From Idiomarina loihiensis L2TR (GTDB lineage Bacteria; Pseudomonadota; Gammaproteobacteria; Enterobacterales; Alteromonadaceae): a stretch of 32,000 bases of DNA. The first letter of the stretch is position 1. Every line of letters starts with the position of its first letter. Where the stretch lies: contig NC_006512.1 in assembly GCF_000008465.1 (NCBI RefSeq), positions 2,730,001 to 2,762,000 on the forward strand. The letters run 5' to 3'. The translations under genes were made by a program, and so were the position numbers. The notes beneath the pieces are model-generated. The model was not told the origin of the DNA, did no database searches, and saw nothing but the letters and a program-made list of their open reading frames with translations. Below, one piece after another: positions 17,000 through 18,973 of this stretch.

Positions 17000-17026
17000 A
17001 GTAGCCTGATGCTTTTGCATCAGGTG
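17000..17026. repeat. REP-like hairpin, copy A (AGTAGCCTGATG-cttttg-CATCAGGTG)
   Basis: 8-bp stem cctgatgc/gcatcagg with a tttt loop. Both arms are identical to copies B and C, but the orientation is inverted. Confidence 0.7.
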
Positions 17027-17147
17027 GGGTGATTGTGGTGGACGCTCGGGATAGAGTAATCGAAAGGCCGGTTGGTGAGCTGGGTACCGGGGTAAATGCG
17101 CTGCGGCTTCAGCTTTAAAAGGAGTAAAGGAGTAAAGCCTCAGAGAG

Positions 17148-17162
17148 CTCACCTGACGTGAA
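17148..17162. repeat. REP-like hairpin, copy C, left half (ctcacctgacgtgaa), split by the IS
   Basis: 14/15 identical to 18947..18961 of the intact copy B. Confidence 0.75.
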
Positions 17163-17170
17163 TGTCATAT

Positions 17171-17183
17171 ATGGTCCCCTCCC
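17171..17183. repeat. Subterminal inverted repeat of the IS (atggtcccctccc), at the transposase 3' end
   Basis: Perfect reverse complement of 18530..18542. It is set 8 nt in from the deduced element end. Confidence 0.85.
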
Positions 17184-17429
17184 GTTTTGCAACGGCAACT
17201 CGTGGTAAATGTCGGGGCGCTCGCATATATACGGCCTGTTTATGGTGCGCGCTTTGCGCACCTGGCCTGGATGAACTCCGCACGACAACTGGCTTATCAG
17301 GCTAACGTACTTTATGTACGGACGTTCAACAGTCTCAGTTGTCGTCGGTTTACCCTATTTTACCATCCTGTTGACGTTTGCAACTCCCGGAAGGAATGAA
17401 CCTTCGCTGTGCTCTTTTACTGAATGCTG
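17171..17429 (-). ncRNA. Candidate IS110/IS1111 bridge (seek) guide RNA region
   Basis: This is 259 nt of noncoding DNA 3' of the transposase. A 9-bp stem (17283..17291 with 17336..17344) encloses a 44-nt loop containing a hairpin (17306..17320). The loop also holds a 9-nt string (17296..17304, atcaggcta) identical to the flank at 18546..18554. Segment 17201..17236 resembles an expanded copy of the junction at 17157..17177. Transcript ends and strand are not determined. Confidence 0.35.
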
Positions 17430-18461
17430 TTAAGCAGCAGTCATCCGGTAATCTTCTTTATTCTTTAACATCGCCCAGATTATCCGGGCGTGCTTGTTAG
17501 CCAGTGCCACCGCTGCAACGTTGTTGCCTCTGCGTTTAGCGACATCCTGTGCCCAGAGGCTCAGCCTGTCGTGGCGCTGTTGTGCCACCCGCAGTGCCGA
17601 GCGGGCGCCATGCACCAGCAGTGTCCTGAGTTTGGTGTTCCCTTTTTTGGTAATACCGCCTAAACGGTCTTTACCGCCACTGCTGTTTTGCCGTGGTACC
17701 AGTCCCAGGTATTCCGACAGGTTGCGGCCGCGTTTAAATTCACTCACATCACCTATCAGTGCCAGCAGCGAGGTCGCTGTTATCGGTCCGATACCCGGCA
17801 GGGTCATCAGCCGCTGACTGTCTTCATTCCTTTCGGCCTGTGTCGCTAAGTGCTTATCCAGCGCTTTAACTTCTTCATCCACCGCTCGCAGCATCTGATA
17901 GAGCCGGTTGATGAGGTCCCGTGACTGAAGCGTCAGCGCATTGCTGTCGTCTTCCAGTACCTCCGGTACTCTCTGTAATATCGTACCGACTCGCTTCGGT
18001 AAAAGAATGCCGTATTCGGCCAGTTGCCCCCGCAACCTATTCGAGAACTGCGTTCTCGTCTGCACGAAGCCTTCCCGCTGATTGACCATCAATGCTAAGT
18101 CCTGCTGCTCAATGCTTTTCAGCCTGACCGTCTGACGGTTGGGTCGTGATGCCGCCTCGGCTATTGCCCGGGCGTCATTCGCATCGTTCTTCTCACCCTG
18201 CAGGTACGCTTTGACGAAACGCGGTGGCAACGCCACCGTTTTATAACCCAGCTTTTCACATTCGCGGCGCCAGTAATGACTCATGCCGCAGGACTCAACC
18301 GCTACTTCACAGTCATCCGTACGGCTCAGCGTCGCCAGCTTCGCTAACACTTTATTGCTGCGCAGTTTTTTATTAAAAACTTCCTGCTCATTTTCATCCA
18401 GCGCCAAAACCTGAATAAAATCCTTTGCCAAATCCAGGGCAATTCTGTTTACAATAGCCAT
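17430..18461 (-). CDS. IS110-family DEDD transposase/recombinase
   Basis: The track ORF starts at 18542, inside the inverted repeat. ATG 18461 (MAIVNRIALDLAKDF...) follows a GGAGAGG Shine-Dalgarno sequence and gives the typical IS110 N-terminus. The C-terminal motif is PGIGPITATSLLALIGD...YLGLVPRQNSSGGK. Confidence 0.9.
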   Translation of the reverse strand: MAIVNRIALDLAKDFIQVLALDENEQEVFNKKLRSNKVLAKLATLSRTDDCEVAVESCGMSHYWRRECEKLGYKTVALPPRFVKAYLQGEKNDANDARAIAEAASRPNRQTVRLKSIEQQDLALMVNQREGFVQTRTQFSNRLRGQLAEYGILLPKRVGTILQRVPEVLEDDSNALTLQSRDLINRLYQMLRAVDEEVKALDKHLATQAERNEDSQRLMTLPGIGPITATSLLALIGDVSEFKRGRNLSEYLGLVPRQNSSGGKDRLGGITKKGNTKLRTLLVHGARSALRVAQQRHDRLSLWAQDVAKRRGNNVAAVALANKHARIIWAMLKNKEDYRMTAA

Positions 18462-18529
18462 TGGTCCTCTCCACTCTGTTCTATAGAAGCTTGAACCTCT
18501 ATATTGGCACATTGCGATGCCGCTTAGGA

Positions 18530-18542
18530 GGGAGGGGACCAT
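18530..18542. repeat. Subterminal inverted repeat of the IS (gggaggggaccat), at the transposase 5' end
   Basis: Perfect reverse complement of 17171..17183. It is set 2 nt in from the deduced element end. Confidence 0.85.
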
Positions 18543-18544
18543 CT

Positions 18545-18555
18545 CATCAGGCTAC
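18545..18555. repeat. REP-like hairpin, copy C, right half (catcaggctac)
   Basis: 11/11 identical to 18962..18972 of the intact copy B. Confidence 0.75.
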
Positions 18556-18566
18556 CCAGCAGACAT

Positions 18567-18594
18567 AAAAAAACCCCAGCCGGTTTGGCTGGGG
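18567..18594 (-). terminator. Rho-independent terminator (distal, second)
   Basis: On the minus strand: ccccagcc-aaacc-ggctgggg (8-bp GC-rich stem) followed by TTTTTTT. Confidence 0.8.
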
Positions 18595-18606
18595 TTATTT
18601 ATTTGT

Positions 18607-18759: not shown

Positions 18760-18879
18760 TAGTCTGGCGGTGACCTACTCTCGCATGGGGAGACCCCACA
18801 CTACCATCGGCGCTGGTGTGTTTCACTTCTGAGTTCGGAATGGATTCAGGTGGTGCCACACCGCTATGGCCGCCAGACA
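18760..18879 (-). rRNA. rrf: 5S ribosomal RNA
   Basis: The reverse complement reads tgtctggcggccatagcggtgtggcaccacctgaatccattccgaactcagaagtgaaac...ccccatgcgagagtaggtcaccgccagacta. It is 120 nt and collinear with E. coli 5S. Confidence 0.92.
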
Positions 18880-18946: not shown

Positions 18947-18973
18947 CTCACCTGATGTGAACATCAGGCTACT
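18947..18973. repeat. REP-like hairpin, copy B (intact), in the 23S-5S spacer
   Basis: ctcacctgatg-tgaa-catcaggctact, with a 7-bp stem and 4-nt loop. It serves as an empty-site reference for the IS insertion. Confidence 0.75.

Follow-up and report, generated by a model that had tools for sequence, protein, structure and literature searches.

Insertion sequences (IS) of the IS1111 group, within the IS110 family, carry a long noncoding arm downstream of the transposase gene and subterminal inverted repeats (IRs) of 7-17 bp with short terminal extensions (PMC11187229; Durrant et al. 2024). The transcription of their guide RNA, termed seekRNA, its co-purification and its requirement for transposition have been shown for ISEc11, ISPa11, ISKpn4 and ISPst6 (PMC11187229); the RNA co-purifies with the transposase in ISEc11, ISPa11 and ISKpn4 (PMC11187229), and in IS1111 seekRNAs the match to the target's top strand lies 5' of the match to the bottom strand (Siddiquee et al. 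2024, PMC11187229). In the published view, the transposase mRNA and a long RNA are co-transcribed from a promoter at the circle junction and subsequently processed (PMC11187229), and nucleotides complementary to the donor have been noted in a multiloop of many IS1111 orthologues (Durrant et al. 2024). The present analysis concerns an element of this group in a stretch of 32,000 nucleotides from Idiomarina loihiensis L2TR (NC_006512.1, positions 2,730,001 to 2,762,000), hereafter referred to as the window, positions being counted from its first letter. The interval 17168-17429, the right-end noncoding arm of the element, very probably encodes on the transposase strand a bridge RNA ('seekRNA' in the IS1111 literature), a reading to which a probability of about 0.88 is attached. 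An earlier, sequence-only reading of the window had proposed that the 3' arm of an IS1111-type element encodes such an RNA, and the proposal is supported by covariation with the targets, a conserved fold and homology to ISEc11 and IS4321. The RNA is a clear further example of the bridge/seek RNA system already described and does not represent a new kind of system. The features that define the element are as follows.

17168..18547, minus strand: IS1111-type insertion sequence, ATGAG + IR ... IR + ATA in IS orientation, its ends taken from the comparison of more than 20 independent insertions
17430..18458, minus strand: transposase/recombinase gene, 342 aa, with DEDD and Transposase_20 domains
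17216..17370, minus strand: predicted bridge/long-seek RNA core of 155 nt with target-binding and donor-binding parts, the sole match of the covariance model R1 (see below) in the window, 135.7 bits

The element is an intact IS1111-type (IS110-family, IS1111 group) insertion sequence, 1380 bp in length with corrected ends and lying on the minus strand. Its transposase carries the Pfam domains PF01548 and PF02371, scores 326.8 bits against the NCBIfam model NF033542, 'IS110 family RNA-guided transposase' (cut-off 140), and contains GLVPRQNSSG, which fits GL-P----SG; the motif GL-P----S(T)G has been defined for IS1111 transposases (PMC11187229). The protein is distantly but significantly homologous to the solved recombinases of IS621 (PDB 8wt6, E 2.7e-9) and ISCro4. 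With the corrected ends the noncoding arms measure 262 nt downstream of the transposase and 89 nt upstream, and the asymmetry first described as 259 against 81 nt is thus real. The layout, with the longer arm downstream, subterminal IRs, the core dinucleotide TG and a hairpin resembling a repetitive extragenic palindrome (REP) as target, is that of the IS1111 group.

Homology with characterised elements was assessed with R1, a covariance model built from A5, an alignment of ten representatives aligned by hand to the proposed structure. R1 matches both ISEc11 (35.4 bits, E 1.2e-8) and IS4321 (43.3 bits, E 1e-10) at full length and directly downstream of the transposase, and scores 60.2 bits against an IS of a Klebsiella plasmid and 28.8 bits against IS5708. 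The ISEc11 guide columns contain ACAGUAUU and GUGAAAA, to which the flanks AATACTGT and GTGAAAA correspond; for IS4321 the columns contain AAAACGGAA and UAUUUU, and the flanks, a Tn21-type inverted repeat, are TTCCGTTTT and TATTTT. The window RNA is placed in the seekRNA/bridge RNA family because of these matches, in which the guides match the flanks; the suggestion that covariance models be used as a check was thereby borne out, with a model built from the clade of the window recovering the RNAs of ISEc11 and IS4321. In the Enterobacter hormaechei plasmid carrying IS5708 (NZ_CP156944.1; L130, 1732-2402), a 241-bp unit with the seek/bridge RNA region forms a tandem array of at least 2.8 copies, 100% identical, downstream of the transposase; the array runs up to the end of the fetched stretch and gives three full R1 matches.

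The RNA of ISEc11 resembles that of the window in lying 3' of the transposase gene, in its length (154 nt for the long form, 155 nt here) and in having a stem-closed loop in which the top-strand match lies 5' of the bottom-strand match, the guides falling in the same alignment columns. However, the transposases are only 38% identical, the target of ISEc11 is not this REP, and the ISEc11 RNA has been shown experimentally whereas that of the window is predicted from sequence. IS4321 shares the subterminal inverted repeats, the short terminal extensions and the RNA family, with 35% protein identity and a transposon end rather than a REP as target. The IS110-family elements ISPa11 (IS1111-type), ISPpu9 and ISPpu10, compared with the window by description, likewise insert in one orientation at one set position within a REP hairpin of the host, and the downstream-arm RNA of ISPa11 co-purifies with the transposase and matches the REP, although the hosts are Pseudomonas and the REP sequences are others. 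The bridge RNA of IS621 (Durrant et al. 2024, Hiraizumi et al. 2024) is similarly bipartite, its target-binding and donor-binding segments each reading both strands and overlapping the core dinucleotide, with a REP target and a homologous recombinase. In contrast to the window RNA, it is encoded 5' of the gene in the left end, its guide order is reversed (the bottom-strand guide being on the 5' side), its donor guides lie in a simple internal loop whereas those of the window flank a branched multiloop closed by long-range helices, and its subterminal repeats are of 2-3 bp as against 13 bp.

The bounds of the IS, its subterminal IRs with 5-nt and 3-nt extensions, the TG core and the REP target were established because the junctions of related copies could be aligned. 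A scan of one genome per species gave 14 loci, of which 13 are in Idiomarina abyssalis, I. zobellii and I. piscisalsi with proteins 95-100% identical, the 14th being a distant relative; a metagenome contig (L047) carries the identical IS at a different site. The junctions and target comprise the following.

18530..18542, no strand assigned: left subterminal inverted repeat, ATGGTCCCCTCCC in IS orientation, part of a perfect 13-bp IR, 5 nt inside the left end
17171..17183, no strand assigned: right subterminal inverted repeat, GGGAGGGGACCAT in IS orientation, part of the perfect 13-bp IR, 3 nt inside the right end
18548..18549, minus strand: left copy of the core dinucleotide TG, the first core position covarying between left-target guide, right-end donor guide and the two junctions
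17166..17167, minus strand: right copy of the core dinucleotide TG, from the junction comparison and guide statistics
18550..18555, minus strand: left half of the target REP, GTAGCC, invariant beside the core in all Idiomarina copies, with unrelated sequence beyond
17146..17165, minus strand: right half of the target REP hairpin, ACATTCACGTCAGGTGAG..., every right flank being a variant of AYRTT(N)ACRTCAGGTGAG
17001-17024, plus strand, and 18951-18972, minus strand: intact REP copies in the window

In IS orientation, the left junctions of all copies read ...GTAGCC TG ATGAG/ATGGTCCCC and the right junctions GGGGACCAT/ATA TG AYRTT..ACRTCAGGTGAG. More than 20 independent insertions from I. abyssalis, I. 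zobellii, I. piscisalsi and metagenomes share the layout GTAGCCTG/ATGAG-IR ... IR-ATA/TG-REP in otherwise unrelated flanks, each copy differing from the rest both downstream of the REP and upstream of GTAGCC-TG. All copies occupy the same REP position in the same orientation, and intact REPs, in the window and at other loci, are exactly the joined flanks (GTAGCCTGAYG...CRTCAGG). The target is therefore a REP-like hairpin, GTAGCC/TG/ACGTTCACGTCAGGTGAG, cut in its 5' arm, and insertion is sequence- and orientation-specific with no target duplication beyond the shared core. The inverted repeats, which the sequence-only reading had treated as the ends of the IS, were rejected as such: they are subterminal, with the ATGAG and ATA extensions lying outside them and conserved in every copy. 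Both intact REPs of the window match the left-target guide and core perfectly and yet are unoccupied; one of them lies in the 23S-5S rRNA spacer. Departures at the core were seen in a locus of I. piscisalsi (L004), where the first core bases differ (TG at the left, CG at the right), in L046 (CA at the left junction, TG at the right) and in L073 (an additional CG at the right junction); these mismatched or extra bases could be footprints of recombination into imperfect cores.

The part of the arm that appears to read this target is a stem-closed loop with two guide segments.

17321..17328, minus strand: predicted right-target guide UGAACGUC, the 5' arm of the loop, pairing with the top strand and complementary to the right target GACGTTCA
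17298..17304, minus strand: predicted left-target guide UAGCCUG, the 3' arm of the loop, identical to top strand TAGCC + core TG and hence pairing with the bottom strand

The 3' arm is assigned to the bottom strand because it has the same sense as the top strand, and the two guides, UGAACGUC on the 5' side and UAGCCUG on the 3' side, overlap at the core G; the arms are thus read, from sequence comparison, as a right-target guide for the top strand and a left-target guide for the bottom strand that meet at the core. The identity between loop arm 17296..17304 and the target flank, on which the earlier proposal drew, is real: the 9-mer atcaggcta occurs at 17296-17304 and 18546-18554 and belongs to a 12-nt direct repeat with one mismatch. 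Its last two bases (AU), however, fall on the two bases with which the IS itself begins, and the true match is UAGCCUG, 5 nt of target plus the core. The other arm, gacgttcaacagtc, had been likened to the opposite junction gacgtgaatgtcat by direct comparison, which is the wrong orientation; the arm is nevertheless a predicted guide, its UGAACGUC being complementary to the right target. A match of at least 9 nt to one 15-nt flank arose in 21 of 5000 dinucleotide shuffles of the arm, so that taken by itself it is only modestly unlikely, and the case was therefore decided by comparison with related copies.

Guide columns were compared with the junctions of the same and of other elements across the family, at loci with placeable subterminal repeats. 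Among 41 distinct guides, the left-target guide showed 88.7% identity with its own junction as against 30.3% with those of others, and the right-target guide 64.1% as against 35.9%; for both, none of 10000 permutations reached the observed value, and the check on covariation of the loop with flanking targets that had been suggested for homologous copies was thus positive. The relationship is most direct in a group of ten contigs (L015-L024) whose transposase, P0003, 83% identical to that of the window, is 100% identical throughout and is accompanied by three sets of target guides.

L015, L018, L024: left flank GTAGGT-CG, loop 3' arm UAGGUCG, donor segment AUAUACG
L016: left flank GTAGCT-TG, loop 3' arm UAGCUUG, donor segment AUAUAUG
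L017, L019, L021, L023: left flank GTAACT-TG, loop 3' arm UAACUUG, donor segment AUAUAUG

In these elements UAGGUCG, UAGCUUG and UAACUUG accompany GTAGGTCG, GTAGCTTG and GTAACTTG, respectively, the 5' arm contains AAGGCGC, complementary to the right flank GCGCCTT, and AUAUACG is confined to the variant with the CG core. The sites of the remaining two, L020 and L022, have one mismatch to their own guide. The P0003 contigs point to guides that change more quickly than the protein and to a tolerance of single mismatches. A relative at 52% identity (L027) has GTAGCC-CG beside UAGCCCG, and within Idiomarina the 5' arm has at least six variants (UGAACGUC, UAAACGUC, UGAAUGUC, AUAACGUC, AUAGCGUC and AUAGCCUC), each closest to the loop variant of its own REP.

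These comparisons bear on a different account, in which the arm acts as a DNA-level structure or as a plain 3'-UTR/terminator of the transposase mRNA and the flank matches are captured REP remnants. REPs are abundant and partly palindromic, which makes short matches such as the 9-mer easy to come by. It leaves unexplained, however, that the arms change with the target in relatives (among them IS4321, which targets the Tn21 inverted repeat, and the P0003 group, which targets GC-rich REPs) while the enclosing stem is kept by compensatory changes, and that one arm is sense and the other antisense, meeting at the crossover, unlike a captured REP copy. Moreover, the RNA co-purifies with the transposase in the homologous ISEc11, ISPa11 and ISKpn4, and no terminator-like T-run follows the stems. 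This account is therefore regarded as highly improbable.

The fold proposed for the guide RNA comprises the following elements.

17336..17348, minus strand: target-loop closing stem, 5' strand CCGACGACAACUG, the inner pairs compensatory at 9/9 in 59 distinct sequences
17278..17291, minus strand: target-loop closing stem, 3' strand CAGUUGUCGUGCGG, the whole stem compensatory at 9/12 pairs among 10 seeds
17306..17320, minus strand: central hairpin of 5 bp between the two target guides, compensatory at 4/5 pairs
17363..17368, minus strand: helix P1, 5' strand GGAUGG, partner UCAUCC at 17269-17274, both-side changes at 5/6 pairs, 93.7% paired
17244..17262, minus strand: donor-multiloop hairpin GGUGCGC AAAGC GCGCACC, 7 bp, the modelled pairs compensatory at 4/4
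17233..17236, minus strand: GGCC stem, 3' strand, partner 17264-17267, 99.6% paired, compensatory at 3/4, bracketing the hairpin between the donor guides
17380..17388, minus strand: long-range helix P0, 5' strand GGGAGUUGC, partner GCGAGCGCCCC at 17214-17224, closing the multiloop just 3' of the right-end donor guide

The stem, the 44-nt loop and the hairpins at 17306-17320 and 17244-17262 are present where the sequence-only reading had placed them; the closing stem is a perfect 10 bp (17282-17291 with 17336-17345), extended by ccg/cgg (17278-17280 with 17346-17348). As minus-strand RNA, the arm is more stable than shuffled sequences (z = -3.8). In A5, which is free of model-fitting bias though itself hand-aligned to the proposed structure, 96.4% of the cells are paired, as against 30-43% in slid controls, and 15/31 pairs show changes on both sides. 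R1 matches at full length in 70/80 metagenomic relatives whose proteins are 36-47% identical, in every case on the transposase strand and downstream of that gene; in the resulting alignment, which is fitted to the model and hence biased towards the modelled structure, 90.7% of the cells are paired as against 30-44% in slid controls, and 28/31 pairs are compensatory. With three weak pairs excluded, G-U pairs (57) exceed A-C pairs (16), and the fold is therefore assigned to the transposase-sense strand. RNAalifold applied to the raw MAFFT alignment missed the main stems because a divergent clade was mis-registered by MAFFT.

Variants of P0 (GAUUGC/GCAAUC, GGUUGC/GCAACC and AAUUGC/GCAAUU) were found in duplex predictions for 69 sequences, read by eye with no formal count; cross-partner duplex energies for this helix are uninformative since the motif is conserved. 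The right-end donor guide shares its last base, G 17224, with P0, whose 3' strand begins there. A further pairing, GGUAAA/UUUACC (17349-17354 with 17204-17209), crosses P0 and would form a pseudoknot or an alternative fold; in relatives it takes the forms GGUCGA/UCG-U-ACC and GGUAAG/CUUACC, and duplexes between the two strands of one element have a slight stability advantage over those formed across elements (p = 0.0008). Segment GACAUUUAC (17205-17213) was considered as a right-target guide and rejected, being unchanged in the P0003 clade, in which the right target is CGCC...; it is more likely the 3' strand of a long-range/tertiary or pseudoknot helix with GGUAAA at 17349-17354. The larger interval 17201..17236 had been read as a series of spaced guide segments, of which only 'catatat' (17224-17230) stands, as a match to the right end of the donor, while 'gtaaatgtc'/'gacauuuac' is unchanged in relatives with different targets.

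On the donor side two segments correspond to the ends of the IS.

17224..17230, minus strand: predicted right-end donor guide AUAUAUG, identical to AT-ATA of the IS right end followed by the core TG (17166-17172)
17270..17275, minus strand: UUCAUC, candidate guide for the left end of the donor, complementary to G+ATGAG (the second base of the core followed by the IS left end), one of the pairs being G-U

Across 12 distinct guides, the right-end segment showed 93.7% own identity as against 70.9% cross identity and the left-end candidate 85% as against 66%, with 0/10000 permutations reaching the observed value in either case. The right-end segment mirrors 5/5 terminal triplets of the family (ATA, GTA, CTA, ACA and AGA), and at the first core base, be it T, C, G or A, the two junctions agree with the left-target and right-end donor guides. 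For the left end, the variants ATGA*, ATGG* and ATGTA are matched by U, C and A changes in the candidate guide. Both donor guides are placed in the multiloop because P0 closes the region just 3' of the right-end guide. The roles of target and donor guides, left unassigned by the sequence-only reading, can thus now be assigned, with 17321-17328 and 17298-17304 for the target, 17224-17230 for the right end of the donor and 17270-17275 as candidate for its left end.

It may be argued instead that the RNA is a seekRNA guiding target choice only, that 17216-17277, a part of the 'long' form, does not read the donor, that the protein recognises the IS ends through the subterminal IRs, and that the donor-like matches stem from P1, RNA processing or promoter elements. 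A parallel is ISEc11, in which a short seekRNA of 82 nt without the donor region was by itself enough for transposition, the role of the long form being left open by the authors (PMC11187229), although donor-complementary multiloop nucleotides are reported for IS1111 orthologues (Durrant et al.). The right-end segment is difficult to accommodate in such a scheme, since intramolecular pairing with the right end offers no explanation for AUAUAUG, which runs in the same sense as that end, and since this segment mirrors all five terminal triplets together with the first core base, even though the IS ends vary little and no more than 12 distinct guide classes underlie the donor statistics. The left-end candidate coincides with the 3' strand of P1, a helix with covariation support of its own; nevertheless, at two variable left-end positions (ATGAG, ATGGG, ATGTA, ATGAC and others) the changes in the RNA keep the pairing with DNA and not always that with the P1 partner, pair 8-138 having 8 unpaired cells. 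A purely target-guiding RNA is accordingly considered unlikely. RNA-guided reading of the donor in the IS1111 branch is inferred rather than proven, because the short ISEc11 seekRNA sufficed.

Several observations weigh against a bridge RNA that reads both target and donor. Apart from the sufficiency of the short ISEc11 form, the bias of the R1 alignment, the modest improbability of the 9-mer and the purely sequence-derived view of the RNA, they are the following: the candidate left-end guide cannot pair in P1 and bind DNA simultaneously; the site of the right-target guide in the window is GACATTCA at 17160-17167, with one mismatch; no sigma-70-like promoter site was found in the integrated copy; and Rfam 15 gave no family over the arm, either in E-value mode on the region or in gathering mode on the whole window. 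Near-identity DNA searches with the IS gave no match in the plasmid collection or the E. coli collection, and no Idiomarina IS is named in the supplementary text of the two key papers.

With regard to the bridge RNA reading, pairing of the left-end guide with DNA and pairing in P1 are both thought to be real and to alternate, because the changes at the variable left-end positions preserve the former and not always the latter. The 5' strand of P1 (GGAUGG; UGAUGG in relatives; xGAUGG) resembles the IS left end as read on its top strand (core + ATGxG), which suggests that P1 may be an RNA decoy or conformational switch. A more elaborate and tentative proposal, itself rather doubtful, is that the long form is a true donor-reading module in which the left-end guide would be sequestered in P1 until donor DNA displaces the RNA decoy, a conformational gate that would couple donor capture to the activity of the target loop. 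Natural variants in which the protein is identical and the first core base changes in both target and donor guide provide a ready allelic series for the decoy idea.

The arm is presumably transcribed as a minus-strand RNA, and a source for the transcript may be provided by the excised form of the element. The predicted circle junction, with the ends joined, reads ...CCATATA-TG-ATGAGATGG... and in silico contains TTGCAA, a 17-nt spacer and TATGAT.

17187..17192, minus strand: TTGCAA, the -35 half of the predicted junction promoter, conserved in relatives, its -10 partner TATGAT being formed of TA + core TG + AT of the left end

This predicted promoter fits the published view of co-transcription. 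By analogy with the literature on IS621, ISEc11 and ISPa11, from which the steps of the mechanism are drawn, the IS would be excised as a circle whose junction promoter (TTGCAA, 17 nt, TATGAT) would drive the transposase and the downstream RNA as one transcript. The RNA would then be processed and bound by the DEDD/serine recombinase. Its target loop would pair with both strands of the REP and its donor region with the circle junction, and strand exchange at the core TG would lead to insertion in a single orientation without duplicating anything outside the shared core.

The second core base shows an asymmetry of its own. In most of the distant relatives (L028-L046 and the majority of L049-L126) the left junction has A at this position (xA-ATGGG) and the right junction G (ATA-xG), and both same-sense guides, the left-target guide and the right-end donor guide, encode G; in the clade of the window it is G on both sides. 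The candidate left-end guide has U opposite A only in the P0019, P0100 and P0013 clades and a few others, and many other relatives with xA at the left keep C. The A might be retained for the sake of a junction -10 of TACAAT rather than TACGAT.

The IS is located directly downstream of an rRNA operon, which consists of 16S, two tRNAs, 23S and then 5S at 18762-18877.

18572-18596, minus strand: strong intrinsic terminator after the 5S rRNA gene

The left end of the IS lies 25 nt downstream of this terminator. It is conceivable that read-through from the very highly transcribed rRNA operon could feed transcription of the transposase and the RNA in the integrated copy.

The locus illustrates that a bridge/seek RNA can be spotted from sequence alone and provides a dissected natural example with exact ends, core, target and guide segments. 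The comparison across the family independently supports RNA guidance in the IS1111 branch, a branch that has received less study than IS621, and the donor-side segment that covaries with the IS ends bears on the role of the long form left open in the seekRNA paper. In this clade the target guides diverge rapidly, following the REP variants while the protein remains constant, and its numerous guide/target pairs, reprogrammed in nature, could help in deriving design rules for the use of IS1111-type recombinases as genome-insertion tools.

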